Source: Eledone cirrhosa (taxonomy: Eukaryota). Taken from it: a stretch of 64,000 nt of DNA. Where the stretch lies: assembly GCA_964016885.1 (NCBI GenBank), contig OZ024741.1, forward strand, positions 222,704,001-222,768,000, read 5' to 3'. Of the stretch, positions 3,704 through 64,000 are shown in pieces; the first letter of the stretch is position 1, and every line of letters starts with the position of its first letter. The position numbers and the translations under genes are program-made. The notes beneath the pieces were generated by a model that made no database searches, was not told the DNA's origin, and worked only from the letters and a program-made list of their open reading frames with translations.

Positions 3704-3752
<49 letters not shown>

Positions 3753-3928
3753 GGGGGGGGGATCCGTATGCATATATGTGTGTATACCCATATATACATA
3801 TATGTATCATATATATTTACACACACACACACATATATATATATGTGCGTATACACACATATATACATATACATACACATTTACATATATATGCACACAT
3901 TCATGCAAGTAATAATAATAATAATAAT

Positions 3929-4692
3929 ATGAAAAGAGGAGACCTTAAAAAGGCTACAGAAGGAATGCTAATGGCTGCGCAAGAGCAGGCCCCCAAAACG
4001 AAGTGGCTGAAACACCATATTTACAAGGAGGAGGCTAGCCCACTGTGCAGGATCTGTGGAGAGAGAGAGGAGACTGTAGCTCACATTGTATCCGAGTGTA
4101 AACACCAAGCCCAGACTCACTATAAGGGCTGGAGACATGATGTGATGAGCAGGGTGATCCACTGGCACCTATGCAAAGTAAACAATTTACCACATTCTGA
4201 GAAGTGGTATGAGCATAAGCCAGAGTCGGTGATAGAAAACGATCAGGTGAAGGTGCTGTGGGATTTTAGGATACAGACGGACAAGAAACTGGAACACAAT
4301 AGACCTGACCTGGTGGTTTTGGACAAGGAAAAAAGATCGTGCCTGATTGTGGATGTGCTGCCCATTCGACACGAGAGTGCAAGAGAAGGAGAGGAAGAAA
4401 ATTAACCGATACCAGGACTTAAAGTGGGAGGTAAAAAGGATTTGGAACTGCCATGAAGTCAAAGTGGTCCCGATTGTCATAGGCGCACTAGGTACTATCT
4501 CAAAAGGTTTCCAGGGATGGTTAAAGAAAATTGGCCCCGCCCCGCTTTTTGGAACGCTTCAAAAGGCATGCTTGCTGGGAACAGCAAGAACCCTCCGATA
4601 CGTCCTGAATATCTGAGGCTGCAGGTAGTGGTTTGATATTCATTTCAACAAACTTTCCAGTTAACTAACATCAATGACTGAGACTCAAAGAA
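3929..4692 (+). mobile_element. 5'-truncated R4/Dong-clade RLE LINE with a frameshift near 4358
   Basis: Contains EGMLMAAQEQ, a CCHC knuckle (CRICGEREETVAHIVSEC), RHD, NRPDLVVLDK, KINRYQDL and VPIVIGALG. Stop at 4616, short 3'UTR, and (AAT)n on both sides (3911-3928, 4693-4741). Confidence 0.9.
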
Positions 4693-9364: not shown

Positions 9365-9776
9365 ATGGTGGCTGCCAACTCGTTTTCGAGTACGGCCACT
9401 ACTTTATATCCATGTAGGAGAACCCCTACCGATGCGCTGAACGAATGTGACTTTTTAGTCCAGCCAGCGACTTGAAAACTCTGGTACAAAGACTACACTT
9501 GTGACCATTATTGACACATAGTGCAGGGCACATGGTACCATGTGATGACAAGTGCTGAGAGATCTCCAGATATAAAGCAATGCCTGTGCTGTGAAGCTTT
9601 TATAGTGAGCAAAGGCACTGCACAAAGCCAGTCCCACTCTCTTAACCAAGATGATATTTACCAAAAAGAAGAACAAGTCAACATCATTGGATACCATCAG
9701 GGTTGCAGGTGTTATATCAGAGTTTTCCTTCTCCTAGAATTCTGCCTTGACAAAGGCTAAGGGGTCATCTCTCCCA
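9365..9776 (-). mobile_element. (ATAC)n-flanked non-autonomous retroposon, truncated copy
   Basis: Near-identical to 17268-17718, with (ATAC)n on both sides. Confidence 0.8.
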
Positions 9777-17267: not shown

Positions 17268-17916
17268 ATACATACATACATACATACATACATACATACA
17301 TACATACATGGTGGCTGCCAACTCGTTTTCGAGTACGGCCACTACTTTATATCCATGTAGGAGAACCCCTACCGATGCACTGAACGAGTGTGACTTTTTA
17401 GTCCAGCCAGCGACTTGAAAACTCTGGTACAAACACTACACTTGTGACAATTATTGACACATAGTGCTGGGCGCATGGTACCATGTGACGACAAGTGCAG
17501 AGAGATCTCCAGATATAAAGCAATGCCTGTGCCATGAAGCTTTTATAGTTAGCAAAGGCACTGCACAAAACCAGTCCCACTCTCTTAACCAAGATGATAT
17601 TTACCAAAAAGAAGAACAAGTCAACATCATTGGATACCACCAGGGTTGCAGGTGTTATATCAGAGTTTTCCTTCTCCTAGAATTCTGCCTTGACAAAGGC
17701 TAAGGGGTCATCTCTCCCGGTGATTTTGGATGGCCATTGACTCTTAAGAGCTCCTTTGCCCTTTGACAGGTTTTGTTTTTAGTCCTGCAGGATGTCCAAA
17801 GTCACCCTCCTCACCAAGAAACCTTGGTGGGGTTGCCAGTTTAGTCGCCAACGACCCGACCATGGGACAGGTTGTACTGGAATACATGTTACCAGTAGCA
17901 CCAACTGGTGACCTGA
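17268..17916 (-). mobile_element. Longest (~650-bp) copy of the (ATAC)n-flanked retroposon, RTE-like
   Basis: The minus strand has CTAGGAGAAGGAAAACTCTGA (RTE 5'UTR-like) and a (TATG)n tail, with (ATAC)n at both ends. Confidence 0.75.
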
Positions 17917-18832: not shown

Positions 18833-19390
18833 CGGGTCACTCTTGAGTGCTACTGGTAACATGTAACCCAGTACTACTTCTCACATGGTCAGGTCGTTGG
18901 CGACTAAACCATCAACCCCACCAAGTTTACTTGGTGGGGAGGGTGATTTTGGTCACCCTGCAGGACAAAAAACAAAACCTGACAAAGGGCGGAAGAACTC
19001 ATGAGAGTCAGTTTTCCTAGGAGAAGGAAAACTCTGATATAACACCTGCAACCCTAATGGTATCCAATGATGTTGACTTGTTCTTCTTTTTGGTAAATAT
19101 CATCTTGGTTAAGAGAGTAGGACTGGCTTTGTGCAGTGCCTTTGCTCACTATAACAGCTTCACGGCACAGGCATTGCTTTATATCTGGAGATCTCTCTGC
19201 ACTTGACGTCACATGGTACCATGGGCCGAGCACTATGTGTCAATAATTGTCGCAGGTGTAGTGTTTGTACCAGAGTTTTCAAGTTGCTAACTGGACTAAA
19301 AAGTCACACTCGTTCAGCGCATCGGTAGGAGTTCTCCTACATGGATATAAGGTAGTGGCCGTACTCGAAAACGAGTTGGCAGCCACCATG
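18833..19390 (+). mobile_element. Inverted copy of the retroposon with an internal deletion
   Basis: Reverse complement of 17268-17916, with the tail (TATG)n at 19390. Confidence 0.8.
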
Positions 19391-21799: not shown

Positions 21800-22600
21800 T
21801 CTGGTCTTCTCCTATCCGAACTTTCCTGATGAAGGACTTCTGTTCGAAACGTTAAAACCTCCTCCACTCCACCGGTGGAGGGCTTTTGTGTTTGCCGGTG
21901 ATATCGGTTTTTACATTGCTGTGCAAACAAAAAAGCCCTCCACCGTACGGATGCTAATGTAAAAGGCCTGATACATGTCCACTAGACCAACAGTGCAACA
22001 CTCCGGCAGTGATATACCAAGCAGAGGTTACATCCACCAACCAGAACCACCAAACTGAAGCCTGGACCTATGTTGGTATGTCCGAGAGCCAGTTTAAAAA
22101 CCGGTTCTGGAATTACGAAACAACATTCAAATATCCTGATAAAAAACATACCACCCTGCGCGCAAACCACGTATGTGACCTTAAGAACAATGGCATGCTG
22201 TTTTCTATCAAATGGCGTATTTTGGAAAGATCTACCGCCTGCGTAAATGGGTCGAAATTTTGTTGGCTTTGTAATTCCGAAAAATGGTGGATACCCTCAC
22301 AATTGGCTTCGGGTAAGCAGTGCCTCAACACACGACTCGATTGCTTTGGCGGTTGTCCCCATGTGAAGAAATATATTTTGGATAAATGGCTTAGGCCTGA
22401 CTAACAGGTCCAGAAGTATCTTTCGAGTTACTGACTATATTGTATTTCAGTGAAATGTGATCCCTGGCGTCAACTAGAAAAATTGATTGTGCTTCTATTT
22501 CCATTCTGAATTGACTGTGGCCTCTCAAGAGTTACCTCCCTTATACCTTATCCTATTTTTTAAAATAACCCCTTTTTTCTATACTTTTTCTAAATTACCT
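21800..22600 (+). mobile_element. Penelope-like element 3' fragment (GIY-YIG endonuclease)
   Basis: CPLDQQC..VIYQAEV...YVGMSESQFKNRF...IKWRILE...CWLCNSEK...LNTR..CPH. Hammerhead-like CTGATGAAGGAC..GTTCGAAAC at 21826. Confidence 0.88.
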
Positions 22601-26120: not shown

Positions 26121-28630
<2,510 letters not shown>

Positions 28631-31997: not shown

Positions 31998-33179
31998 CCA
32001 TTGGAAGGAAAGTTAGCCGTTCTAAAAGTGTAATAGCGAGGATATTGAAATTGTATAATGAAACTAACTCATTCACGTCTACGAAGGCCGGCCGTTCACG
32101 TACAGCAAGTCAATGAGTGGACCGCATGATCCACAGAATGTCTATGGGGAACCGCTTCGACACTGTAGCTGGAATATCTCAACAAATCAGCGCTAATTTG
32201 AGCAACGAAGTGTCTCGGTGTACAGTCTCTCGTCGTCTGGCAGAAGTTGGATTGAAATCCCACTCCCCAGCGATCAAACCTCTTATCAGCAACAAAAATA
32301 AAATTCCTAGACTTACCTTTGCCGAGAAACATGTGATGTGAGGTGAAAAAAACTGGTCCAAAGTTCATTTTAGTGATGAAAGTAAGTTTACTTTGGTTGG
32401 TTCAGTTGGTAACCAAAATGAAAGACATAAAACTGAGGAAAGACTTCTTTCTAAGTGTGTCAAAAAGTCTGTAAAATTCGGAGGAGCCGGTGTCATGGTT
32501 TGGGGAATATTCTCAGCAGCCGGAGTGGGGCCTCTGATACACTTAAATGGTACTGTTAATGCTAATGTTACCAGAACACTCCTTCAGCAATACGCCATTG
32601 CCTCTTTACGGGCTTCTCCCAACCAATCAGCCATTTTTATGCAAGATAATGCTCCGTGTCATACTGCAAAACGAGTGAAAAAATTTCTCGCAGATTAGGA
32701 AATAGAAGTTTTGAAATGGCCAGCCCAGAGTCTCAACTTAAATCCAATCGAGAACCTTTGGAAAATCATTGGGGACAACATCATGGCGAAAAACCCAGCT
32801 TCAACCATTGAATTATGGAAGAAACTGGAAGAGAGGAATAATATCACTACAAAATTGTGCAATACCATGGTGAATTCATGTGGATGCAGATGTGCCGAAG
32901 TCATCCAAAGCAAGGACCTCTACACTTCCTATTGATGTTTGAGAATGCATAAACCCTAGTTTGTAGACTAAATCTCATGTTTAATTGTTTTCGTTCTCTT
33001 ATTTTAATCACTATTTTTTCAAAATTAAATGTATATCATTAATATCTTGTGTATACCCTTGATTATTTAGAAAGTATTTTAGCACAAGACAGATATATAT
33101 ACGACGAATATTCTTTCAAATTTTAAAGGAAAATGTTTGTCAAATACGAAAATAGATTTAAAAATTAATTTATCGTTCT

Positions 33180-41935: not shown

Positions 41936-43151
<1,216 letters not shown>

Positions 43152-44591
43152 TTACACTTCTTGTTTTTACATTACTTACACTTCTTGTTTTTACATTACT
43201 TACACTTCTTGTTTTTACATTACTTACACTTCTTGTTTTTACATTACTTACACTTCTTGTTTTTACATTACTTACACTTCTTGTTTTTACATTACTTACA
43301 CTTCTTGTTTTTACATTACTTACACTTCTTGTTTTTACATTACTTACACTTCTTGTTTTTACATTACTTACACTTCTTGTTTTTACATTACTTACACTTC
43401 TTGTTTTTACATTACTTACACTTCTTGTTTTTACATTACTTACACTTCTTGTTTTTACATTACTTACACTTCTTGTTTTTACATTACTTACACTTCTTGT
43501 TTTTACATTACTTACACTTCTTGTTTTTACATTACTTACACTTCTTGTTTTTACATTACTTACACTTCTTGTTTTTACATTACTTACACTTCTTGTTTTT
43601 ACATTACTTACACTTCTTGTTTTTACATTACTTACACTTCTTGTTTTTACATTACTTACACTTCTTGTTTTTACATTACTTACACTTCTTGTTTTTACAT
43701 TACTTACACTTCTTGTTTTTACATTACTTACACTTCTTGTTTTTACATTACTTACACTTCTTGTTTTTACATTACTTACACTTCTTGTTTTTACATTACT
43801 TACACTTCTTGTTTTTACATTACTTACACTTCTTGTTTTTACATTACTTACACTTCTTGTTTTTACATTACTTACACTTCTTGTTTTTACATTACTTACA
43901 CTTCTTGTTTTTACATTACTTACACTTCTTGTTTTTACATTACTTACACTTCTTGTTTTTACATTACTTACACTTCTTGTTTTTACATTACTTACACTTC
44001 TTGTTTTTACATTACTTACACTTCTTGTTTTTACATTACTTACACTTCTTGTTTTTACATTACTTACACTTCTTGTTTTTACATTACTTACACTTCTTGT
44101 TTTTACATTACTTACACTTCTTGTTTTTACATTACTTACACTTCTTGTTTTTACATTACTTACACTTCTTGTTTTTACATTACTTACACTTCTTGTTTTT
44201 ACATTACTTACACTTCTTGTTTTTACATTACTTACACTTCTTGTTTTTACATTACTTACACTTCTTGTTTTTACATTACTTACACTTCTTGTTTTTACAT
44301 TACTTACACTTCTTGTTTTTACATTACTTACACTTCTTGTTTTTACATTACTTACACTTCTTGTTTTTACATTACTTACACTTCTTGTTTTTACATTACT
44401 TACACTTCTTGTTTTTACATTACTTACACTTCTTGTTTTTACATTACTTACACTTCTTGTTTTTACATTACTTACACTTCTTGTTTTTACATTACTTACA
44501 CTTCTTGTTTTTACATTACTTACACTTCTTGTTTTTACATTACTTACACTTCTTGTTTTTACATTACTTACACTTCTTGTTTTTACATTAC
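43152..44591. repeat. Perfect 24-bp tandem array (TTACACTTCTTGTTTTTACATTAC) x60
   Basis: 1440 bp; I saw no variant unit. Confidence 0.98.
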
Positions 44592-46928: not shown

Positions 46929-47145
46929 TTATATATACATATATTATATGTATATATGTATACGTACATATTGTATATATATATATACGCATACAGATAT
47001 ACGCACACACATATATGTATCCACGTACACATCCTATATACACATATACAGACATGTATATATATATAGAAACACATAAAACTAACCCCCCCCCCCTTGC
47101 ACACACACATACACACACACACACACACTACAGTCTGATGTTTAT
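46437..47145. repeat. Inverted duplication of a microsatellite-rich block
   Basis: ATAAACATCAGACTGTAGTG...GCAAAGGGGGGGG is mirrored by CCCCCCCCTTGC...CACTACAGTCTGATGTTTAT. Confidence 0.85.
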
Positions 47146-47411
47146 ATATATATATATATGTATGTATATATTCATACATATAAATATATATATATATACA
47201 CACATAAATATGTATATACATATATAAAAACAAAAATTACTTAGATGTCTGTGAGTATCTAAGTGTATTAATATATTGATATTTGTGTGGGTACACTTAC
47301 ATATATATATATATACATATATACATAAATACTAATGTGTGTGCGCGTGTGTGTATGATATATATGTGTGTGTGTGTGATATATACATACACACACACAG
47401 ACACACACATG

Positions 47412-47445
<34 letters not shown>

Positions 47446-47522
47446 TAAAAAAATATATATATATATATACAGTCACACATATGTATATATATTTATATAT
47501 ATACACACATACATACACACAC

Positions 47523-47597
<75 letters not shown>

Positions 47598-47712
47598 TAC
47601 ACACATATACGCACGCACATACACACATACTTACACACATACTGTCTTTGTTTTTTTCAACAGAAATATGATATATTATGTCTGATTAGTTGGAAGGGTG
47701 GGGAGGTTGGAA

Positions 47713-50700
47713 ATGGGTATATTTTTGGATTGTGGGAGAGGTGGTGATGTTAATCTAGTTTGTTGTGATGGTGGTAGTGGTACTAGTGGTGTTGGTAGTG
47801 GTGGTAGTGGTACTAGTGGTGCTGGTGTTGGTAGTGGTGGTAGTGGTACTAGTGGTGTTGGTAGTGGTGGTAGTGGTACTAGTGGTGCTGGTGTTGGTAG
47901 TGGTGGTAGTGGTACTAGTGGTGCTGGTGTTGGTAGTGGTGGTAGTGGTACTAGTGGTGTTGGTAGTGGTGGTAGTGGTACTAGTGGTGCTGGTGTTGGT
48001 AGTGGTGGTAGTGGTACTAGTGGTGCTGGTGTTGGTAGTGGTGGTAGTGGTACTAGTGGTGCTGGTGTTGGTAGTGGTGGTAGTGGTACTAGTGGTGCTG
48101 GTGTTGGTAGTGGTGGTAGTGGTACTAGTGGTGCTGGTGTTGGTAGTGGTGGTAGTGGTACTAGTGGTGTTGGTAGTGGTGGTAGTGGTACTAGTGGTGC
48201 TGGTGTTGGTAGTGGTGGTAGTGGTACTAGTGGTGCTGGTGTTGGTAGTGGTGGTAGTGGTACTAGTGGTGTTGGTAGTGGTGGTAGTGGTACTAGTGGT
48301 GCTGGTGTTGGTAGTGGTGGTAGTGGTACTAGTGGTGCTGGTGTTGGTAGTGGTGTTAGTGATGGTACAAGTGGTACTGGTGTTGGTAGTGGTGTTAGTG
48401 ATGGTACTAGTGCTGCTGGTGTTGGTACTGGTGTTAGTGATGGTACTAGTGGTGCTGGTGTTGGTAGTGGTGTTAGTGATGGTACTAGTGGTGTTGGTGT
48501 TGGTAGTGGTGGTAGTGATGGTACTAGTGGTGCTGGTGTTGGTAGTGGTGGTAGTGATGGTACTAGTGGTGCTGGTGTTGGTAGTGGTGTTAGTGATGGT
48601 ACTAGTGGTGCTGGTGTTGGTAGTGGTGATAGTGATGGTACTAGTGGTGCTGGTGTTGGTAGTGGTGGTAGTGATGGTACTAGTGGTGTTGGTGTTGGTA
48701 GTGGTGGTAGTGATGGAACTAGTGGTGCTGGTGTTGGTAGTGGTGTTAGTGATGGTACTAGTGGTGCTGGTGTTGGTAGTGGTGTTAGTGATGGTACTAG
48801 TGGTGCTGGTGTTGGTAGTGGTGTTAGTGATGGTACTAGTGGTGTTGGTGTTGGTAGTGGTGTTAGTGATGGTACTAGTGGTGTTGGTGTTGGTAGTGGT
48901 GTTAGTGATGGTACTAGTGGTGTTGGTGTTGGTAGTGGTGTTAGTGATGGTACTAGTGGTGCTGGTGTTGGTAGTGGTGTTAGTGATGGTACTAGTGGTG
49001 TTGGTGTTGGTAGTGGTGTTAGTGATGGTACTAGTGGTGTTGGTGTTGGTAGTGGTGTTAGTGATGGTACTAGTGGTGTTGGTGTTGGTAGTGGTGTTAG
49101 TGATGGTACTAGTGGTGTTGGTGTTGGTAGTGGTGTTAGTGATGGTACTAGTGGTGCTGGTGTTGGTAGTGGTGGTAGTGATGGTACTAGTGGTGCTGGT
49201 GTTGGTAGTGGTGGTAGTGATGGTACTAGTGGTGCTGGTGTTGGTAGTGGTGTTAGTGATGGTACTAGTGGTGCTGGTGTTGGTAGTGGTGTTAGTGGTG
49301 GTACTAGTGGTGCTGGTGTTGGTAGTGGTGTTGGTGATGGTACTAGTGGTCCTGGTGTTGGTAGTGGTGTTAGTGATGGTACTAGTGGTGCTGGTGTTGG
49401 TAGTGGTGGTAGTGATGGTACTAGTGGTGCTGGTGTTGGTAGTGGTGGTAGTGGTACTAGTGGTGCTGGTGTTGGTAGTGGTGTTAGTGATGGTACTAGT
49501 GGTGCTGGTGTTGGTAGTGGTGTTAGTGATGGTACTAGTGGTGTTGGTGTTGGTAGTGGTGTTAGTGGTGGTACTAGTGGTGCTGGTGTTGGTAGTGGTG
49601 TTAGTGATGGTACTAGTGGTGCTGGTGTTGGTAGTGGTGTTAGTGATGGTACTAGTGGTGCTGGTGTTGGTAGTGGTGTTAGTGATGGTACTAGTGGTGC
49701 TGGTGTTGGTAGTGGTGTTAGTGGTGGTACTAGTGGTGCTGGTGTTGGTAGTGGTGTTAGTGATGGTACTAGTGGTGCTGGTGTTGGTAGTGGTGTTAGT
49801 GACGGTACTAGTGGTGCTGGTGTTGGTAGTGGTGGTAGTGATGGTACTAGTGGTGCTGGTGTTGGTAGTGGTGGTAGTGATGGTACTAGTGGTGCTGGTG
49901 TTGGTAGTGGTGTTAGTGATGGTACTAGTGGTGCTGGTGTTGGTAGTGGTGTTAGTGGTGGTACTAGTGGTGCTGGTGTTGGTAGTGGTGTTGGTGATGG
50001 TACTAGTGGTCCTGGTGTTGGTAGTGGTGTTAGTGATGGTACTAGTGGTGCTGGTGTTGGTAGTGGTGGTAGTGATGGTACTAGTGGTGCTGGTGTTGGT
50101 AGTGGTGGTTGTGGTACTAGTGGTGCTGGTGTTGGTAGTGGTGTTAGTGATGGTACTAGTGGTGCTGGTGTTGGTAGTGGTGTTAGTGATGGTACTAGTG
50201 GTCCTGGTGTTGGTAGTGGTGTTAGTGGTACTAGTGGTGCTGGTGTTGGTAGTGGTGTTAGTGGTGCTGGTGTTGGTAGTGGTGGTTGTGGTACTAGTGG
50301 TGCTGGTGTTGGTAGTGGTGTTAGTGATGGTACTAGTGGTGCTGGTGTTGGTAGTGGTGTTAGTGATGGTACTAGTGGTCCTGGTGTTGGTAGTGGTGTT
50401 AGTGGTACTAGTGGTGCTGGTGTTGGTAGTGGTACTAGTGGTTCTGGTGTTGGTAGTGGTGATAGTGATGGTACTAGTGGTGCTGGTGTTGGTAGTGGTG
50501 TTAGTGGTGGTACTAGTGGTGCTGGTGTTGGTAGTGGTGTTAGTGGTGGTACTAGTGGTGCTGGTGTTGGTAGTGGTGGTAGTGATGGTACTAGTGGTTC
50601 TGGTGTTGGTAGTGGTGATAGTGATGGTACTAGTGGTTCTGGTGTTGGTAGTGGTGATAGTGATGGTACTAGTGGTGCTGGTTTTGGTAGTGGTGTTAGT

Positions 50701-53700
50701 GGTGGTACTAGTGGTGCTGGTGTTGGCAGTGGTGTTAGTGATGGTACTAGTGGTGCTGGTGTTGGTAGTGGCGTTAGTGGTGGTACTAGTGGTGCTGGTG
50801 TTGGTAGTGGTGTTAGTGGTGGTACTAGTGGTGCTGGTGTTGGTAGTGGTGGTAGTGATGGTACTAGTGGTGCTGGTGTTGGTAGTGGTGGTAGTGATGG
50901 TACTAGTGGTGCTGGTGTTGGTAGTGGTGGTAGTGGTGGTAGTAGTGGTGCTGGTGTTGGTAGTGGTGGTAGTGGTACTAGTGGTGCTGGTGTTGGTAGT
51001 GGTGTTAGTGATGGTAGTAGTGGTGCTGGTGTTGGTAGTGGTGGTAGTGATGCTAGTGGTGCTGGTGTTGGTAGTGGTGGTAGTGGTACTAGTGGTGCTG
51101 GTGTTGGTAGTGGTGGTAGTGATGGTACTAGTGGTGCTGGTGTTGGTAGTGGTGGTAGTGGTACTAGTGGTGCTGGTGTTGGTAGTGGTGTTAGTGATGG
51201 TACTAGTGGTGCTGGTGTTGGTAGTGGTGGTAGTGATGGTACTAGTGGTGCTGGTGTTGGTAGTGGTGGTAGTGATGGTACTAGTGGTGCTGGTGTTGGT
51301 AGTGGTGGTAGTGATGGTACTAGTGGTGCTGGTGTTGGTAGTGGTGGTAGTGATGGTACTAGTGGTGCTGGTGTTGGTAGTGGTGTTAGTGATGGTACTA
51401 GTGGTGCTGGTGTTGGTAGTGGTGGTAGTGGTACTAGTGGTGCTGGTGTTGGTAGTGGTGGTAGTGATGGAACTAGTGGTGCTGGTGTTGGTAGTGGTGG
51501 TAGTGATGGTACTAGTGGTGCTGGTGTTGGTAGTGGTGTTAGTGATGGTACTAGTGGTGCTGGTGTTGGTAGTGGTGTTAGTGATGGTACTAGTGGTGCT
51601 GGTGTTGGTAGTGGTGTTAGTGGTACTAGTGGTGCTGGTGTTGGTAGTGGTGGTTGTGGTACTAGTGGTGCTGGTGTTGGTAGTGGTGGTAGTGATGGTA
51701 CTAGTGGTGCTGGTGTTGGTAGTGGTGTTAGTGATGGTACTAGTGGTTCTGGTGTTGGTAGTGGTGGTAGTGATGGTACTAGTGGTGCTGGTGTTGGTAG
51801 TGGTGGTAGTGGTACTAGTGGTGCTGGTGTTGGTAGTGGTGTTAGTGATGGTACTAGTGGTGCTGGTGTTGGTAGTGGTGGTAGTGGTACTAGTGGTGCT
51901 GGTGTTGGTAGTGGTGGTAGTGATGGAACCAGTGGTGCTGGTGTTGGTAGTGGTGTTAGTGATGGTACTAGTGGTGCTGGTGTTGGTAGTGGTGGTAGTG
52001 ATGGTACTAGTGGTGCTGGTGTTGGTAGTGGTGTTAGTGATGGTACTAGTGGTGCTGGTGTTGGTAGTGGTGGTAGTGATGGTACTAGTGGTGCTGGTGT
52101 TGGTAGTGGTGGTAGTGATGGTACTAGTGGTGCTGGTGTTGGTAGTGGTGGTAGTGGTACTAGTGGTGCTGGTGTTGGTAGTGGTGTTAGTGATGGTACT
52201 AGTGGTGCTGGTGTTGGTAGTGGTGGTAGTGGTACTAGTGGTGCTGGTGTTGGTAGTGGTGTTAGTGATGGTACTAGTGGTGCTGGTGTTGGTAGTGGTG
52301 GTAGTGGTGGTACTAGTGGTGCTGGTGTTGGTAGTGGTGTTAGTGATGGTACTAGTGGTGCTGGTGTTGGTAGTGGTGTTAGTGATGGTACTAGTGGTGC
52401 TGGTGTTGGTAGTGGTGTTAGTGATGGTACTAGTGGTGCTGGTGTTGGTAGTGGTGGTAGTGATGGTACTAGTGGTGCTGGTGTTGGTAGTGGTGTTAGT
52501 GATGGTACTAGTGGTGCTGGTGTTGGTAGTGGTGGTAGTGATGGTACTAGTGGTGCTGGTGTTGGTAGTGGTGGTAGTGATGGTACTAGTGGTGCTGGTG
52601 TTGGTAGTGGTGTTAGTGATGGTACTAGTGGTGCTGGTGTTGGTAGTGGTGGTAGTGATGGTACTAGTGGTGCTGGTGTTGGTAGTGGTGGTAGTGGTAC
52701 TAGTGGTACTGGTGTTGGTAGTGGTGTTAGTGATGGTACTAGTGGTGCTGGTGTTGGTAGTGGTGTTAGTGATGGTACTAGTGGTGCTGGTGTTGGTAGT
52801 GGTGGTAGTGATGGTACTAGTGGTGCTGGTGTTGGTAGTGGTGTTAGTGATGGTACTAGTGGTGCTGGTGTTGGTAGTGGTGGTAGTGATGGTACTAGTG
52901 GTGCTGGTGTTGGTAGTGGTGGTAGTGGTACTAGTGGTACTGGTGTTGGTAGTGGTGTTAGTGATGGTACTAGTGGTGCTGGTGTTGGTAGTGGTGTTAG
53001 TGATGGTACTAGTGGTGCTGGTGTTGGTAGTGGTGGTAGTGATGGTACTAGTGGTGCTGGTGTTGGTAGTGGTGTTAGTGATGGTACTAGTGGTGCTGGT
53101 GTTGGTAGTGGTGTTAGTGATGGTACTAGTGGTGCTGGTGTTGGTAGTGGTGGTAGTGGTACTAGTGGTACTGGTGTTGGTAGTGGTGTTAGTGATGGTA
53201 CTAGTGGTGCTGGTGTTGGTAGTGGTGTTAGTGGTACTAGTGGTGCTGGTGTTGGTAGTGGTGTTAGTGGTACTAGTGGTGCTGGTGTTGGTAGTGGTGG
53301 TAGTGGTACTAGTGGTGCTGGTGTTGGTAGTGGTGTTAGTGATGGTACTAGTGGTGCTGGTGTTGGTAGTGGTGTTAGTGGTACTAGTGGTGCTGGTGTT
53401 GGTAGTGGTGTTAGTGGTACTAGTGGTGCTGGTGTTGGTAGTGGTGTTAGTGGTACTAGTGGTGCTGGTGTTGGTAGTGGTGTTAGTGGTACTAGTGGTG
53501 CTGGTGTTGGTAGTGGTGGTAGTGATGGTAGTAGTGGTGCTGGTGTTGGTAGTGGTGGTAGTGATGGTACTAGTGGTGCTGGTGTTGGTAGTGGTGTTAG
53601 TGATGGTACTAGTGGTGCTGGTGTTGGTAGTGGTGGTAGTGATGGTAGTAGTGGTGCTGGTGTTGGTAGTGGTGGTAGTGATGGTACTAGTGGTGCTGGT

Positions 53701-56700
53701 GTTGGTAGTGGTGTTAGTGATGGTACTAGTGGTGCTGGTGTTGGTAGTGGTGTTAGTGATGGTACTAGTGGTGCTGGTGTTGGTAGTGGTGTTAGTGATG
53801 GTACTAGTGGTCCTGGTGTTGGTAGTGGTGGTAGTGATGGTACTAGTGGTGCTGGTGTTGGTAGTGGTGGTAGTGATGGTACTAGTGGTGCTGGTGTTGG
53901 TAGTGGTGTTAGTGATGGTACTAGTGGTGCTGGTGTTGGTAGTGGTGGTAGTGATGGTACTAGTGGTGCTGGTGTTGGTAGTGGTGGTAGTGATGGTACT
54001 AGTGGTGCTGGTGTTGGTAGTGGTGTTAGTGATGGTACTAGTGGTGCTGGTGTTGGCAGTGGTGTTAGTGGTACTAGTGGTGCTGGTGTTAGTAGTGGTG
54101 TTAGTGATGGTACTAGTGGTGCTGGTGTTGGTAGTGGTGTTAGTGATGGTACTAGTGGTGTTGGTGTTGGTAGTGGTGTTAGTGATGGTACTAGTGGTGC
54201 TGGTGTTGGTAGTGGTGTTAGTGATGGTACTAGTGGTGCTGGTGTTGGTAGTGGTGGTAGTGTTACTAGTGGTGCTGGTGTTAGTAGTGGTGTTAGTGAT
54301 GGTACTAGTGGTGCTGGTGTTGGTAGTGGTGGTAGTGATGGTACTAGTGGTGCTGGTGTTGGTAGTGGTGGTAGTGGTACTAGTGGTGCTGGTGTTGGTA
54401 GTGGTGTTAGTGATGGTACTAGTGGTGCTGGTGTTGGTAGTGGTGGTAGTGATGGTACTAGTGGTGCTGGTGTTGGTAGTGGTGGTAGTGATGGTAGTAG
54501 TGGTGCTGGTGTTGGTAGTGGTGGTAGTTATGGTACTAGTGGTGCTGGTGTTGGTAGTGGTGGTAGTGGTACTAGTGGTGCTGGTGTTGGTAGTGGTGTT
54601 AGTGATGGTACTAGTGGTCCTGGTGTTGGTAGTGGTGGTAGTGATGGTACTAGTGGTGCTGGTGTTGGTAGTGGTGGTAGTGGTACTAGTGGTGCTGGTG
54701 TTGGTAGTGGTGTTAGTGATGGTACTAGTGGTGCTGGTGTTGGTAGTGGTGGTAGTGATGGTACTAGTGGTGCTGGTGTTGGTAGTGGTGGTAGTGATGG
54801 TACTAGTGGTGCTGGTGTTGGTAGTGGTGGTAGTGATGGTACTAGTGGTGCTGGTGTTGGTAGTGGTGGTAGTGATGGTACTAGTGGTGCTGGTGTTGGT
54901 AGTGGTGTTAGTGATGGTACTAGTGGTGCTGGTGTTGGTAGTGGTGGTAGTGGTACTAGTGGTGCTGGTGTTGGTAGTGGTGGTAGTGATGGAACTAGTG
55001 GTGCTGGTGTTGGTAGTGGTGGTAGTGATGGTACTAGTGGTGCTGGTGTTGGTAGTGGTGTTAGTGATGGTACTAGTGGTGCTGGTGTTGGTAGTGGTGT
55101 TAGTGATGGTACTAGTGGTGCTGGTGTTGGTAGTGGTGTTAGTGGTACTAGTGGTGCTGGTGTTGGTAGTGGTGGTTGTGGTACTAGTGGTGCTGGTGTT
55201 GGTAGTGGTGGTAGTGATGGTACTAGTGGTGCTGGTGTTGGTAGTGGTGTTAGTGATGGTACTAGTGGTTCTGGTGTTGGTAGTGGTGGTAGTGATGGTA
55301 CTAGTGGTGCTGGTGTTGGTAGTGGTGGTAGTGGTACTAGTGGTGCTGGTGTTGGTAGTGGTGTTAGTGATGGTACTAGTGGTGCTGGTGTTGGTAGTGG
55401 TGGTAGTGGTACTAGTGGTGCTGGTGTTGGTAGTGGTGGTAGTGATGGAACCAGTGGTGCTGGTGTTGGTAGTGGTGTTAGTGATGGTACTAGTGGTGCT
55501 GGTGTTGGTAGTGGTGGTAGTGATGGTACTAGTGGTGCTGGTGTTGGTAGTGGTGTTAGTGATGGTACTAGTGGTGCTGGTGTTGGTAGTGGTGGTAGTG
55601 ATGGTACTAGTGGTGCTGGTGTTGGTAGTGGTGGTAGTGATGGTACTAGTGGTGCTGGTGTTGGTAGTGGTGGTAGTGGTACTAGTGGTGCTGGTGTTGG
55701 TAGTGGTGTTAGTGATGGTACTAGTGGTGCTGGTGTTGGTAGTGGTGGTAGTGGTACTAGTGGTGCTGGTGTTGGTAGTGGTGTTAGTGATGGTACTAGT
55801 GGTGCTGGTGTTGGTAGTGGTGGTAGTGGTGGTACTAGTGGTGCTGGTGTTGGTAGTGGTGTTAGTGATGGTACTAGTGGTGCTGGTGTTGGTAGTGGTG
55901 TTAGTGATGGTACTAGTGGTGCTGGTGTTGGTAGTGGTGTTAGTGATGGTACTAGTGGTGCTGGTGTTGGTAGTGGTGGTAGTGATGGTACTAGTGGTGC
56001 TGGTGTTGGTAGTGGTGTTAGTGATGGTACTAGTGGTGCTGGTGTTGGTAGTGGTGGTAGTGATGGTACTAGTGGTGCTGGTGTTGGTAGTGGTGGTAGT
56101 GATGGTACTAGTGGTGCTGGTGTTGGTAGTGGTGTTAGTGATGGTACTAGTGGTGCTGGTGTTGGTAGTGGTGGTAGTGATGGTACTAGTGGTGCTGGTG
56201 TTGGTAGTGGTGGTAGTGGTACTAGTGGTACTGGTGTTGGTAGTGGTGTTAGTGATGGTACTAGTGGTGTTGGTGTTGGTAGTGGTGTTAGTGATGGTAC
56301 TAGTGGTGCTGGTGTTGGTAGTGGTGGTAGTGATGGTACTAGTGGTGCTGGTGTTGGTAGTGGTGTTAGTGATGGTACTAGTGGTGCTGGTGTTGGTAGT
56401 GGTGGTAGTGATGGTACTAGTGGTGCTGGTGTTGGTAGTGGTGGTAGTGGTACTAGTGGTACTGGTGTTGGTAGTGGTGTTAGTGATGGTACTAGTGGTG
56501 CTGGTGTTGGTAGTGGTGTTAGTGATGGTACTAGTGGTGCTGGTGTTGGTAGTGGTGGTAGTGATGGTACTAGTGGTGCTGGTGTTGGTAGTGGTGTTAG
56601 TGATGGTACTAGTGGTGCTGGTGTTGGTAGTGGTGTTAGTGATGGTACTAGTGGTGCTGGTGTTGGTAGTGGTGGTAGTGGTACTAGTGGTACTGGTGTT

Positions 56701-59700
56701 GGTAGTGGTGTTAGTGATGGTACTAGTGGTGCTGGTGTTGGTAGTGGTGTTAGTGGTACTAGTGGTGCTGGTGTTGGTAGTGGTGTTAGTGGTACTAGTG
56801 GTGCTGGTGTTGGTAGTGGTGTTAGTGGTACTAGTGGTGCTGGTGTTGGTAGTGGTGTTAGTGGTACTAGTGGTGCTGGTGTTGGTAGTGGTGTTAGTGG
56901 TACTAGTGGTGCTGGTGTTGGTAGTGGTGTTAGTGGTACTAGTGGTGCTGGTGTTGGTAGTGGTGGTAGTGATGGTAGTAGTGGTGCTGGTGTTGGTAGT
57001 GGTGGTAGTGATGGTACTAGTGGTGCTGGTGTTGGTAGTGGTGTTAGTGATGGTACTAGTGGTGCTGGTGTTGGTAGTGGTGGTAGTGATGGTACTAGTG
57101 GTGCTGGTGTTGGTAGTGGTGTTAGTGATGGTACTAGTGGTGCTGGTGTTGGTAGTGGTGGTAGTGATGGTAGTAGTGGTGCTGGTGTTGGTAGTGGTGG
57201 TAGTGATGGTACTAGTGGTGCTGGTGTTGGCAGCGGTGTTAGTGGTACTAGTGGTGCTGGTGTTAGTAGTGGTGTTAGTGATGGTACTAGTGGTGCTGGT
57301 GTTGGTAGTGGTGTTAGTGATGGTACTAGTGGTGTTGGTGTTGGTAGTGGTGTTAGTGATGGTACTAGTGGTGCTGGTGTTGGTAGTGGTGTTAGTGATG
57401 GTACTAGTGGTGCTGGTGTTGGTAGTGGTGGTAGTGTTACTAGTGGTGCTGGTGTTAGTAGTGGTGTTAGTGATGGTACTAGTGGTGCTGGTGTTGGTAG
57501 TGGTGGTAGTGATGGTACTAGTGGTGCTGGTGTTGGTAGTGGTGGTAGTGGTACTAGTGGTGCTGGTGTTGGTAGTGGTGTTAGTGATGGTACTAGTGGT
57601 GCTGGTGTTGGTAGTGGTGGTAGTGATGGTACTAGTGGTGCTGGTGTTGGTAGTGGTGGTAGTGATGGTAGTAGTGGTGCTGGTGTTGGTAGTGGTGGTA
57701 GTTATGGTACTAGTGGTGCTGGTGTTGGTAGTGGTGGTAGTGGTACTAGTGGTGCTGGTGTTGGTAGTGGTGTTAGTGATGGTACTAGTGGTCCTGGTGT
57801 TGGTAGTGGTGTTAGTGATGGTACTAGTGGTGCTGGTGTTGGTAGTGGTGGTAGTGATGGTAGTAGTGGTGCTGGTGTTGGTAATGGTGGTAGTGATGGT
57901 ACTAGTGGTGCTGGTGTTGGTAGTGGTGTTAGTGATGGTACTAGTGGTGTTGGTGTTGGTAGTGGTGTTAGTGATGGTACTAGTGGTGCTGGTGTTGGTA
58001 GTGGTGGTAGTGATGGTACTAGTGGTGCTGGTGTTGGTAGTGGTGTTAGTGGTGGTACTAGTGGTGCTGGTGTTGGTAGTGGTGTTAGTGATGGTACTAG
58101 TGGTGCTGGTGTTGGGAGTGGTGTTAGTGATGGTACTAGTGGTCCTGGTGTTGGTAGTGGTGTTTGTGATGGTACTAGTGGTGCTGGTGTTGGTAGTGGT
58201 GTTAGTGATGGTACTAGTGGTGTTGGTGTTGGTAGTGGTGGTTGTGGTACTAGTGGTGCTGGTGTTGGTAGTGGTGGTAGTGATGGTACTAGTGGTGCTG
58301 GTGTTGGTAGTGGTGTTAGTGATGGTACTAGTGGTGCTGGTGTTGGTAGTGGTGGTAGTGGTACTAGTGGTGCTGGTGTTGGTAGTGGTGTTAGTGATGG
58401 TACTAGTGGTGCTGGTGTTGGTAGTGGTGTTAGTGATGGTACTAGTGGTGCTGGTGTTGGTAGTGGTGGTAGTGATGGTACTAGTGGTGCTGGTGTTGGT
58501 AGTGGTGTTAGTGATGGTACTAGTGGTGCTGGTGTTGGTAGTGGTGTTAGTGATGGTACTAGTGGTGTTGGTGTTGGTAGTGGTGTTAGTGATGGTACTA
58601 GTGGTGCTGGTGTTGGTAGTGGTGGTAGTGGTACTAGTGGTGCTGGTGTTGGTAGTGGTGTTAGTGATGGTACTAGTGGTGCTGGTGTTGGTAGTGGTGT
58701 TAGTGATGGTACTAGTGGTGCTGGTGTTGGTAGTGGTGGTAGTGGTACTAGTGGTGCTGGTGTTGGCAGTGGTGTTAGTGATGGTACTAGTGGTGCTGGT
58801 GTTGGTAGTGGTGTTAGTGATGGTACTAGTGGTGCTGGTGTTGGTAGTGGTGGTAGTGGTACTAGTGGTGCTGGTGTTAGTAGTGGTGTTAGTGATGGTA
58901 CTAGTGGTGCTGGTGTTGGTAGTGGTGGTAGTGGTACTAGTGGTGCTGGTGTTAGTAGTGGTGTTAGTGATGGTACTAGTGGTCCTGGTGTTGGTAGTGG
59001 TGTTAGTGATGGTACTAGTGGTGCTGGTGTTGGTAGTGGTGGTAGTGATGGTACTAGTGGTGCTGGTGTTGGTAGTGGTGGTAGTGATGGTACTAGTGGT
59101 GCTGGTGTTGGTAGTGGTGTTAGTGATGGTACTAGTGGTGCTGGTGTTGGTAGTGGTGTTAGTGATGGTACTAGTGGTGCTGGTGTTGGTTGTGGTGTTA
59201 GTGATGGTACTAGTGGTCCTGGTGTTGGTAGTGGTGTTAGTGATGGTACTAGTGGTGCTGGTGTTGGTGCTGGTGTTGGTAGTGGTGGTAGTGGTACTAG
59301 TGGTCCTGGTGTTGGTAGTGGTGGTTGTGGTACTAGTGGTGCTGGTGTTGGAAGTGGTGTTAGTGATGGTACTAGTGGTGCTGGTGTTGGTAGTGGTGGT
59401 AGTGATGGTACTAGTGGTGCTGGTGTTGGTAGTGGTGTTAGTGATGGTACTAGTGGTGCTGGTGTTGGTAGTGGTGGTAGTGATGGTACTAGTGGTGCTG
59501 GTGTTGGTAGTGGTGTTAGTGATGGTACTAGTGGTGCTGGTGTTGGTAGTGGTGTTAGTGATGGTACTAGTGGTGCTGGTGTTGGTAGTGGTGTTAGTGA
59601 TGGTACTAGTGGTGCTGGTGTTGGTAGTGGTGGTAGTGATGGTACTAGTGGTGCTGGTGTTGGTAGTGGTGTTAGTGATGGTACTAGTGGTGCTGGTGTT

Positions 59701-62700
59701 GGTAGTGGTGTTAGTGATGGTACTAGTGGTGTTGGTGTTGGTAGTGGTGTTAGTGATGGTACTAGTGGTGCTGGTGTTGGTAGTGGTGGTAGTGGTACTA
59801 GTGGTGCTGGTGTTGGTAGTGGTGTTAGTGATGGTACTAGTGGTGCTGGTGTTGGTAGTGGTGTTAGTGATGGTACTAGTGGTGCTGGTGTTGGTAGTGG
59901 TGGTAGTGGTACTAGTGGTGCTGGTGTTGGCAGTGGTGTTAGTGATGGTACTAGTGGTGCTGGTGTTGGTAGTGGTGTTAGTGATGGTACTAGTGGTGCT
60001 GGTGTTGGTAGTGGTGGTAGTGGTACTAGTGGTGCTGGTGTTAGTAGTGGTGTTAGTGATGGTACTAGTGGTGCTGGTGTTGGTAGTGGTGGTAGTGGTA
60101 CTAGTGGTGCTGGTGTTAGTAGTGGTGTTAGTGATGGTACTAGTGGTCCTGGTGTTGGTAGTGGTGTTAGTGATGGTACTAGTGGTGCTGGTGTTGGTAG
60201 TGGTGGTAGTGATGGTACTAGTGGTGCTGGTGTTGGTAGTGGTGGTAGTGATGGTACTAGTGGTGCTGGTGTTGGTAGTGGTGTTAGTGATGGTACTAGT
60301 GGTGCTGGTGTTGGTAGTGGTGTTAGTGATGGTACTAGTGGTGCTGGTGTTGGTTGTGGTGTTAGTGATGGTACTAGTGGTCCTGGTGTTGGTAGTGGTG
60401 TTAGTGATGGTACTAGTGGTGCTGGTGTTGGTGCTGGTGTTGGTAGTGGTGGTAGTGGTACTAGTGGTCCTGGTGTTGGTAGTGGTGGTTGTGGTACTAG
60501 TGGTGCTGGTGTTGGAAGTGGTGTTAGTGATGGTACTAGTGGTGCTGGTGTTGGTAGTGGTGGTAGTGATGGTACTAGTGGTGCTGGTGTTGGTAGTGGT
60601 GTTAGTGATGGTACTAGTGGTGCTGGTGTTGGTAGTGGTGGTAGTGATGGTACTAGTGGTGCTGGTGTTGGTAGTGGTGTTAGTGATGGTACTAGTGGTG
60701 CTGGTGTTGGTAGTGGTGGTAGTGATGGTACTAGTGGTGCTGGTGTTGGTAGTGGTGGTAGTGATGGTACTAGTGGTGCTGGTGTTGGTAGTGGTGGTAG
60801 TGGTGGTACTAGTGGTGCTGGTGTTGGTAGTGGTGGTAGTGGTACTAGTGGTGCTGGTGTTGGTAGTGGTGTTAGTGATGGTACTAGTGGTGCTGGTGTT
60901 GGTAGTGGTGGTCGTGGTACTAGTGGTGCTGGTGTTGGTAGTGGTGGTAGTGATGGTACTAGTTGTGCTGGTGTTGGTAGTGGTGTTAGTGATGGTACTA
61001 GTGGTGCTGGTGTTGGTAGTGGTGTTAGTGATGGTACTAGTGGTGCTGGTGTTGGTAGTGGTGTTAGTGATGGTACTAGTGGTGCTGGTGTTGGTAGTGG
61101 TGGTTGTGGTACTAGTGGTGCTGGTGTTGGTAGTGGCGGTAGTGATGGTAGTAGTGGTGCTGGTGTTGGTAGTGGTGTTAGTGATGGTACTAGTGGTGCT
61201 GGTGTTGGTAGTGGTGGTAGTGGTACTAGTGGTGCTGGTGTTGGTAGTGGTGTTAGTGATGGTACTAGTGGTGCTGGTGTTGGTAGTGGTGGTAGTGATG
61301 GTACTAGTGGTGCTGGTGTTGGTAGTGGTGTTAGTGATGGTACTAGTGGTGCTGGTGTTGGTAGTGGTGGTAGTGATGGTACTAGTGGTGCTGGTGTTGG
61401 TAGTGGCGGTAGTGATGGTAGTAGTGGTGCTGGTGTTGGTAGTGGTGTTAGTGATGGTACTAGTGGTGCTGGTGTTGGTAGTGGTGGTAGTGGTACTAGT
61501 GGTGCTGGTGTTGGTAGTGGTGTTAGTGATGGTACTAGTGGTGCTGGTGTTGGTAGTGGTGTTAGTGATGGTACTAGTGGTGCTGGTGTTGGTAGTGGTG
61601 GTAGTGGTACTAGTGGTGCTGGTGTTGGTAGTGGTGGTAGTGATGGTACTAGTGGTGCTGGTGTTGGTAGTGGTGGTAGTGATGGTACTAGTGGTGCTGG
61701 TGTTGGTAGTGGTGTTAGTGATGGTACTAGTGGTGCTGGTGTTGGTAGTGGTGTTAGTGATGGTACTAGTGGTGCTGGTGTTGGTAGTGGTGTTAGTGAT
61801 GGTACTAGTGGTGCTGGTGTTGGTAGTGGTGTTAGTGATGGTACTAGTGGTGCTGGTGTTGGTAGTGGTGTTAGTGATGGTACTAGTGGTGCTGGTGTTG
61901 GTAGTGGTGGTAGTGATGGTACTAGTGGTGCTGGTGTTGGTAGTGGTGTTAGTGGTGGTACTAGTGGTCCTGGTGTTGGTAGTGGTGGTAGTGATGGTAC
62001 TAGTGGTGCTGGTGTTGGTAGTGGTGTTAGTGATGGTACTAGTGGTCCTGGTGTTGGTAGTGGTGTTAGTGATGGTACTAGTGGTGCTGGTGTTGGTAGT
62101 GGTGTTAGTGATGGTACTAGTGGTCCTGGTGTTGGTAGTGGTGGTAGTGATGGTACTAGTGGTGCTGGTGTTGGTAGTGGTGTTAGTGATGGTACTAGTG
62201 GTCCTGGTGTTGGTAGTGGTGTTAGTGATGGTACTAGTGGTGCTGGTGTTGGTAGTGGTGTTAGTGATGGTACTAGTGGTCCTGGTGTTGGTAGTGGTGG
62301 TAGTGATGGTACTAGTGGTGCTGGTGTTGGTACTGGTGTTAGTGATGGTACTAGTGGTCCTGGTGTTGGTAGTGGTGGTAGTGATGGTACTAGTGGTGCT
62401 GGTGTTGGTAGTGGTGGTAGTGGTACTAGTGGTGCTGGTGTTGGTAGTGGTGTTAGTGATGGTACTAGTGGTGCTGGTGTTGGTAGTGGTGTTAGTGATG
62501 GTACTAGTGGTCCTGGTGTTGGTAGTGGTGTTAGTGATGGTACTAGTGGTGCTGGTGTTGGTAGTGGTGTTAGTGATGGTACTAGTGGTGCTGGTGTTGG
62601 TAGTGGTGTTAGTGGTGGTACTCGTGGTGCTGGTGTTGGTAGTGGTGGTAGTGATGGTACTAGTGGTGTTGGTAGTGGTGGTAGTGGTACTAGTGGTGTT

Positions 62701-63183
62701 GGTAGTGGTGGTAGTGGTACTAGTGGTGCTGGTGTTGGTAGTGGTGTTAGTGATGGTACTAGTGGTGCTGGTGTTGGTAGTGGTGTTAGTGGTGGTACTA
62801 GTGGTGCTGGTGTTGGTAGTGGTGTTAGTGATGGTACTAGTGGTGCTGGTGTTGGTAGTGGTGTTAGTGATGGTACTAGTGGTGCTGGTGTTGGTAGTGG
62901 TGTTAGTGGTGGTACTAGTGGTGCTTGTGTTGGTAGTGGTGTTAGTGATGGTACTAGTGCTGCTGGTGTTGGTACTGGTGTTAGTGATGGTACTAGTGGT
63001 GCTGGTGTTGGTAGTGGTGTTAGTGATGGTACTGGTGTTAGTTGTGGAGATGTTGGTAGTGGTACTAGTGGTGCTGGTCTTGAAAGTGGTGTTAGTGATG
63101 GTACTGGTGTTCGTTGTAAAAATGTTGGTAATGGTACTAGTGGTGCTGGTGTTGGTAATGATGTTTGTGATAGTAGTGGATAG
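47713..63183 (+). CDS. Candidate giant Gly/Ser silk-like frame, ([13 protein letters not shown])n
   Basis: ATG in GAAATGG context and TAG at 63181-63183. Short non-repetitive Cys-containing ends and no signal peptide. Coding status unproven. Confidence 0.3.
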
Positions 63184-63216
63184 GTTAGTATTGGTCGTGT
63201 TATAGTATTTGTTGTA
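47755..63216 (-). CDS. Candidate giant Thr/Asn/Ser mucin-like frame, ([13 protein letters not shown])n, 5153 open codons
   Basis: Exact antisense codon frame of the + Gly/Ser ORF. TAG at 47757-47755 sits at the array edge. There is no in-frame ATG; the T/N-rich ATG frame at 63508 is two 1-nt shifts away. Coding status unproven. Confidence 0.35.
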
Positions 63217-63480
63217 TTAGTAGCGGGAATGTTGGTAGTGCTACTAGTGGCACTGTTGTTGGTAGTGGTGTTTATGATAGTAGTGGCGAAGTTAGTATTG
63301 GTCGTGTTATTGTATTGGTAGTGTTGGTGGTGTTGATAGTGGCGTTTGTGATAGTAGAGGAGAGGTTAGTGGCGGTGATGTTGGTAGTGTTACTAGTGGT
63401 ACTAGTATTGGTAGTGATGTTCATGATATCAATAGTGGTGTTATTATTGGTGGTGTTAGTTATAGTGGTGTTGTTGTTGT
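47765..63480. repeat. ~15.5-kb tandem array of 39/36/30-bp units (GGTACTAGTGGTGCTGGTGTTGGTAGTGGTGTTAGTGAT), roughly 400 units
   Basis: Visible directly. Triplet phase is unbroken from 47.76 to 63.2 kb and degenerates over 63.0-63.48 kb. Confidence 0.98.
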
Positions 63481-63777
63481 TTAGTAAAACAGTGACAACT
63501 CTGGGCATGTTTAGATCTTATTTGACAACATCAGCAAAGCATAGTCTAACCGTATTGTTGTATCTTATGGATTTTAGACTGACTAGAGAATATTATTAGT
63601 ACTTTTGTTAATGAACATTGAGTTGCATAATAACTTAGAATACCGACTAGAATGGGCTATATTCTGGGATACCTTCTGCATGAAAAGCTCATAGTAAAGC
63701 GTACTCTAACATGTTTGATATTGAGAGCGAAAACATTTTAATTAATTAAAATTATACTCCCTTATTCTAGTCACCCT

Positions 63778-64000
63778 CAGGGCCGGATTAAGTCCTTTTG
63801 AGGCCCTTAGCGATTACAAGATTATGGTGCTCAGCATTGCCGGATTTAGGACAAATGAGGCCCTGTGCTAGTTAGGTTATGAGGTCCCTTACTTGGGCCC
63901 TGATTGAGGTAATTCATCGTATATTAATTTGGTAGGAAGATGGATTCCGCTGGCCAACATGGTCCCGTGCTTAAGCACACTTAAGCACAATGGTAAATTC
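63778..64000. mobile_element. Probable hAT-type MITE start, cut by the window edge
   Basis: CAGGGCCGGATT terminus with repeated GAGGCCC subterminal motifs. Confidence 0.5.

Follow-up and report, generated by a model that had tools for sequence, protein, structure and literature searches.

We regard it as likely that the long tandem array in the analysed window (a 64,000-nt stretch of Eledone cirrhosa DNA) is a young, locus-private and non-coding minisatellite with a 39-bp unit, which may lie within an intron, a UTR or a non-coding transcript. Among the readings offered by the initial annotation, the last one (a non-coding satellite) is supported by the lack of a synonymous excess, by the frameshifted old end of the array and by stop-free frames that arise automatically in DNA of this kind. 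Its headline reading, a giant silk-like or mucin-like protein, found no support, as no frame has a synonymous excess and the flanking ORFs scanned yielded neither a mucin nor a silk domain.

The array was delimited by TRF at 47787-63175 (period 39, 402.7 copies). The spacings of 399 anchors placed within it were mostly 39 bp (306 times) and 36 bp (81), with occasional steps of 30 bp (7), 27 bp (2) and 48 bp (2). Its indels fall into seven types, each a multiple of 3; from 47786 to 63035 there are no frameshifts, and the longest in-phase run of the array extends over 15,416 bp. Thus, the spacings, the indels and the TRF result bear out the earlier description of about 400 units of 30, 36 or 39 bp that keep phase over 15.4 kb. 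The core consists almost entirely of the triplets GGT, AGT, GTT, ACT, GCT and GAT (T-ending triplets, 99.6%). A 29-mer of the unit had all of its 297 genomic matches inside the window, which makes the exact unit private to this locus in a 3.0-Gb genome. Duplicated blocks of 1-3.5 kb occur within the array, and the two exact internal matches (1,650 and 1,196 bp, Table 1) point to recent array growth.

Table 1. Coordinates of the features discussed in the text (positions within the window)
Feature	Position	Strand	Description
Acceptor-like site	47643..47663	+	pyrimidine tract and CAG; single copy in genome; candidate splice site
Pro/Leu/Thr frame	47676..63365	-	two stops, at ~54530 and ~57704, same unit variant duplicated
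Gly/Ser/Val frame	47713..63183	+	5,156 aa, ATG to TAG; third position T in 5,125/5,156 codons
Thr/Ser/Asn/Ile frame	47755..63216	-	5,153 codons, no Met, 597 N-x-S/T sequons, 1 Pro, GC3 0.68
Val/Leu frame	47759..63205	+	5,148 codons open; second mechanical ORF on plus strand
Homogeneous core of minisatellite	47787..63035	none	~395 units of 39/36/30 bp; 54 distinct unit strings; without frameshift
Higher-order duplication inside array	51098..56269	none	exact 1,650-bp match at 51098 and 54620, 3,522 bp apart
Higher-order duplication inside array	58359..60718	none	exact 1,196-bp match at 58359 and 59523, 1,164 bp apart
Older degenerate end	63036..63488	none	four diverged 17-triplet blocks at 63049, 63121, 63228 and 63377
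107-bp duplication	63121..63316	none	identical 1-bp frameshift in both copies, with 2-nt remnants (63202-63203, 63309-63310)
78-aa ORF from ATG 63508	63272..63508	-	leaves Thr phase at first frameshift, then stops; no Pfam match
Possible poly(A) signal ATTAAA	63745..63750	+	560 nt after plus-strand stop; predicted

Two other arrays of the window were inspected. The G/T array at 1-2790 had been described as shifting frame, and it does so (period 35, 49 phase shifts); patches of this degenerate 35-bp repeat continue upstream over 20 kb, with many phase shifts and in the strand orientation of the main array. At 43152-44591, 60 perfect copies of a 24-bp unit hold four open frames (486-532 aa); this is, by all appearances, the same multi-frame ORF artefact on a smaller scale, and the product of a very recent expansion.

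Since the units are almost wholly made of NNT triplets, three frames stay open along the main array (Table 1). The caveat that stop-free frames are automatic in such sequence, already raised in the initial annotation, is well founded: none of the 117 single-base changes of the commonest unit gives a stop in the plus Gly or the minus Thr frame. Both giant frames exist as they had been reported, the plus one (given as about 5150 aa) with Cys at both ends, the minus one with 5153 open codons and rich in sequons. The ends of the plus product are ~20 and ~45 residues long, and its composition is dominated by Gly (43%, with Ala 7% and Asp 6%); the motif is GAGVGS, not the fibroin-type GAGAGS to which it had been likened. 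Its N-terminus holds no hydrophobic signal-like stretch (best 8-residue hydropathy 1.40), and its first 200 aa have no Pfam match. In the minus Thr frame ACC is the dominant codon, and the stop, which had been placed exactly at the array edge, is indeed near it but falls ~30 nt outside the first unit. The interval originally proposed (47713-63508) joins a plus-strand ATG to a minus-strand ATG whose frame differs from that of the long minus ORF; owing to two frameshifts in the degenerate end, the latter ATG opens 78 codons only.

The units carry 32 distinct substitutions, spread 14:9:9 over the triplet positions. For the 29 events in full-length units, the synonymous changes observed (and expected) amounted to 8 (7.7) in the plus Gly frame, 12 (8.9) in the plus Val frame, 9 (7.4) in the minus Thr frame and 9 (10.4) in the minus Pro frame (all p >= 0.15); the per-frame counting proposed earlier as a check on the protein reading thus returned no synonymous excess in any of the four frames. 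Weighted by copy, 297 of 318 variants were non-synonymous in the plus Gly frame and 284 of 318 in the minus Thr frame, the commonest ones being non-synonymous in both. We stress that these selection tests (n ~30, low power) remove support for coding rather than disprove it: mucin and silk repeats are weakly constrained, and neutral substitution counts are compatible with coding.

The minus strand had been favoured in the initial annotation on the grounds that many changes at 63.0-63.5 kb are synonymous on it. In this reading, which we consider very unlikely, the array would be a mucin-related exon or gene encoding a 5,153-residue Thr/Ser/Asn rod with dense O- and N-glycosylation, destined for mucus or egg coat. 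The frame has the appropriate composition (81% Thr+Ser, 597 sequons) and a stop near the array edge, and the count behind the argument is real: 24 of the 39 deviant triplets of the old end are possibly synonymous on minus, where the null fraction is 0.37 (p 0.0008 with repeats still included). As coding evidence, however, this nearest-triplet test failed three controls and was rejected. Of 12 frameshifted arrays, 11 show the same excess; the aligned old-end blocks give 6 of 17 changes synonymous on minus (2 of 17 on the plus Gly frame); and the 107-bp copies differ at 11 sites, 1 of which is synonymous on minus. From the make-up of these tracts we infer that the signal comes from their common ATT, AAT and TGT triplets, together with a G-to-A/T bias.

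The minus Thr frame is further weakened as a gene by its start and surroundings. It has no Met, and two real frameshifts separate it from the ATG at 63508; no signal-like peptide was found for it (best 8-residue hydropathy 1.68), and by a simple acceptor rule no acceptor-like site occurs on the minus strand of 47000-64000, a distant signal exon with a weak acceptor being possible. A single Pro among 5,153 residues, a GC3 of 0.68 and the dominance of ACC set it apart from the control exon (one exon, from a hemocyanin gene of the same genome, GC3 0.37; plus Gly frame, 0.00). Protein searches among sequences of similar or greater length returned no homologs of the frame, a weak result for low-complexity queries. 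Likewise, VWD, SEA, CK, EGF and chitin-binding domains had no match in the flanks scanned, and among the 72 VWD matches of the genome the nearest is 3.0 Mb from the array. The Pfam scan covered 296 of 324 flanking ORFs of at least 50 aa (150/170 on minus, 146/154 on plus) and four array-derived peptides, the flanks being 2800-47700, 63480-64000 and 30 kb downstream; exons of fewer than 50 codons would escape it. In these ORFs we found no mucin or silk domain, only transposase, reverse-transcriptase zinc finger and C2H2 fragments and weak matches, plus one DUF3915 match just above the cut-off in an (AG)n stretch.

The DNA between the two G/T arrays of the window is made up of microsatellites, short interspersed repeats and transposon fragments. 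Tc1/mariner transposase fragments, a reverse-transcriptase zinc finger and three short C2H2 matches were located here (32117-32935, 42176-42511, 3704-4616, 9429-9599, 17372-17542 and 19155-19325), two of the C2H2 matches within a duplicated stretch, and the ORFs at 21958-22404 and 27142-27681 look by eye like GIY-YIG fragments but have no Pfam match. As for the molluscan hemocyanin genes of this genome, their domain matches are clustered at C1:173.74-173.91 Mb, C26:21.93-22.02 Mb (two inverted genes) and C27:61-67 kb, with seven domain matches per gene; seven units are the octopod layout. One hemocyanin unit scored 650-659 bits against 6r83, 4yd9 and 1js8, which we take to be squid and octopus proteins; for the best-matching unit of 3j32, presumably a gastropod protein, the E-value was 3e-151. 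These matches and the seven-unit layout indicate a cephalopod genome, probably an octopod one. A tract at C9:37.74 Mb, tried as a real-mucin control, was dropped as it turned out to be another mixed-triplet tract. At ~37,746,200-37,747,700 of C9 there is a 33-bp array with a Cys/Gly-rich plus frame (GGGCGCRCGSV, 497 aa open) in a tract with two frameshifts; this frame resembles what we take to be the pattern of keratin-associated proteins.

The plus strand offers a reading that, judged from the order of its signals, is more coherent than the minus one and that we still hold to be quite improbable: an orphan gene in which a non-coding first exon would be spliced to 47664, and the ATG at 47713 would open a 5,156-aa Gly/Ser/Val elastomer, cross-linked through its terminal Cys and devoid of a signal peptide, a layout presumably closer to loricrin than to silk. 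The acceptor-like site (to 47663), the ATG (47713), the stop and the ATTAAA (63745) follow one another in the expected order, the ATG stands in good context (purine at -3, G at +4), the stop comes 20 nt ahead of the first frameshift, and a Cys cluster lies at either end. Against this, the third codon position is almost invariably T, while it is mixed in the hemocyanin exon; synonymous changes in the frame number 8 of 29 in the core (expected 7.7) and 2 of 17 in the old end; and sister blocks carry GAA or GAG at the position of the TAG, which makes this stop look like decay. Two short upstream ATG frames (47668 and 47678) precede the putative start. The comparator arrays show similar arrangements, with an in-frame ATG opening the same frame in 4 of 9 and an acceptor-like site within 100 bp in 2 of 9 (p 0.07 versus a background of 0.2 such sites per kb). 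Protein searches with the frame returned two marginal collagen-domain matches only (a weak test for a low-complexity query), and it had no Pfam match.

The most conspicuous property of the array, its unbroken phase, was assessed against related arrays. A search of the genome with the old end produced 1,626 candidates, of which 38 were scored and 17 regions fetched; 14 of these gave 15 arrays of at least 1.5 kb, and two C23 regions and one C1 region, in which no array exceeded the threshold, were left out of the counts. These comparators were not drawn at random; several are truncated where the fetched region stops, and a coding function is conceivable for some of them. Frameshifts were present in 14 of the 15, including all nine of at least 10 kb. 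The arrays at C2:386.886-386.911 Mb and C28:56.838-56.867 Mb (at least 25 and at least 29 kb, both extending past the fetched edge) keep phase over 13.4 and 12.1 kb. Their longest open frames (6,713 and 7,224 aa) continue across frameshifts because several frames are stop-free. Over 10 large arrays, 24-mer diversity was correlated positively with frameshift density (rho 0.84, p 0.002) and negatively with the longest in-phase run (rho -0.79, p 0.006). The window array has the lowest diversity and the longest run among the 10 arrays of at least 10 kb examined.

When distinct frameshifts were scaled to distinct third-position changes, 1.8-2.3 frameshifts were expected in the core, and the probability of seeing none was 0.10-0.17 (from 13 or 5 comparators), a value to be read with the fact that the array was picked for its absence of frameshift. 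With all 15 comparators, including two arrays at C4:375 Mb, this probability is 0.02 for the core and 0.005 for the whole array; we set those two aside as probably noisy assembly, given the Ns in one of them and the abundance of scattered 1-bp indels in both. The window array stands at the clean end of its class, not clearly outside it: the phase conservation highlighted earlier is the best among the 10 arrays of at least 10 kb, but given the youth of the array it does not clearly exceed chance. Dispersed non-genic copies of the unit, which the initial annotation had named as grounds for abandoning a gene, present a divided picture, in that the exact unit is confined to this locus, whereas its building blocks recur in arrays scattered over the genome, most of them frameshifted. 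Two arrays, at C2:404.81-404.84 Mb and C4:343.82 Mb, have a common 18-bp unit type (GGCVGS on plus) and are both frameshifted.

The degenerate end is likely to be the seed tract of the array. Its two 1-bp frameshifts (~63202 and ~63309) are one lesion, copied by the 107-bp duplication. Across 63030-63864, short-read contigs of three runs of one sample (which may be the assembled individual) agree with the assembly without a single difference or gap, and the frameshifts there are therefore not assembly errors. A 31-mer of this end (63446-63476) has 7 more copies in an 83-bp array at C24:26668109-26668720 and no other genomic site; a shared seed or convergence could account for this. A mobile element as shared seed was considered and rejected: for the right flank, the fetched loci contained no match beyond the flank itself and one downstream repeat copy, 63490-63780 was matched nowhere else in the genome, and the left flank occurs just once. 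Further right, at 63780-64000, a very high-copy repeat begins (contig depth >40,000 versus ~9 in the adjoining unique flank).

We reason that an older tract of mixed GGT/AGT/GTT triplets would have given rise, at one of its ends, to the 13-triplet unit of the minisatellite. Slippage in triplet-periodic DNA would add or remove whole triplets, and unequal exchange would copy units faster than the rare 1-2 bp indels arise. Phase would then be kept through youth and mechanism, not through selection.

That the length of the array is an assembly artefact, i.e. a short repeat over-expanded by the assembler, appears extremely unlikely. In its favour are the exact duplications of 1,650 and 1,196 bp, a depth per assembled copy of ~0.55 of the flank depth in run X1, and a left junction that is uncovered by short-read contigs. 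RAD runs of three other samples had no reads on this junction and the array start, and the one compared with the old end covered only the flanking repeat. However, for six short-read contigs with k-mers found 49-293 times in the assembly, depth ranges from 228 to 1,500 (4.4-5.1 per assembled copy throughout), which supports the array length in order of magnitude only, k-mer depth not being a copy number. Flank depths in three runs of the sample were 8.8, 6.5 and 4.2, and the lower depth per copy fits a shorter second allele or library bias.

The consequences are in the first place practical, as NNT-triplet arrays of this genome produce silk-like or mucin-like ORFs of 5,000-7,000 codons without sign of selection and call for caution in annotation, and simply counting changes that are synonymous on the Thr strand is misleading as a test for them. 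The 10-29 kb arrays that share GTT-GGT-AGT or GTT-AGT blocks could deserve a short description as a class: we found no published account of them in the open-licence literature (supplementary repeat libraries may list such arrays), and in the main text of PMC13282606 no word begins with 'satellite'. Should one strand prove to be translated, the array would encode a de novo structural protein of very large size. It is conceivable, although unlikely, that we are looking at a newborn orphan gene, in which the 39-bp amplification behind a chance acceptor and ATG would have yielded the 5,156-residue Gly/Ser elastomer, or the minus strand a Pro-free, N-glycan-rich mucin exon; giant GTT-GGT-AGT arrays would then form a standing pool of multi-thousand-codon proto-ORFs, on a scale far above that of codfish antifreeze.

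Silk fibroin heavy chains combine a GAGAGS-type Gly-Ala core with conserved terminal domains and a signal peptide. The plus frame resembles them, or loricrin-type Gly/Ser proteins, in its Gly content (43%), long repeat core, short Cys-containing ends and single large exon; it departs from them in its GAGVGS motif, low Ala (7%), Asp (6%), ends without Pfam match, lack of a signal-like peptide and invariant third codon position. The criterion for a mucin PTS domain in PMC4948705 is at least 40% Thr+Ser, often with more than 5% Pro, and the giant Thr/Ser tandem repeat of the minus frame, at 81% Thr+Ser, lies above the first of these values; a Pro-free Thr/Ser repeat is termed 'mucin-related' in PMC2515642, so that the minus repeat would qualify beside the Drosophila Mur proteins. 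Unlike mucins, this frame contains 1 Pro in 5,153 residues and a frameshifted 5' end, and the analysis turned up neither a start codon nor a signal-like peptide for it, nor an acceptor-like site or a neighbouring VWD-C8-TIL module.

Genes that grew out of repeats provide another parallel. The gadid antifreeze glycoprotein is a de novo ORF from tandem repeats that gained a signal peptide and promoter (PMC6410882), and human orf143 a de novo ORF grown by tandem repeats (PMC12888051); the window array is like both in having a long frame, a proto-ORF, made by amplification of a triplet-multiple unit in non-coding DNA. Transcription or translation was shown in those cases, whereas the frames of the array here are predicted from DNA.

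Minisatellites (VNTRs) consist of head-to-tail units of 10-60 bp at one locus, are shaped by slippage and unequal exchange, and vary in length between alleles. While the window array is unlike them in its 15.4-kb length and in stop-poor triplets that mimic a giant ORF, it agrees with this class in its single locus, 39-bp unit, interspersed variant units, kb-sized block duplications, degenerate edge and neutral-looking substitution pattern.
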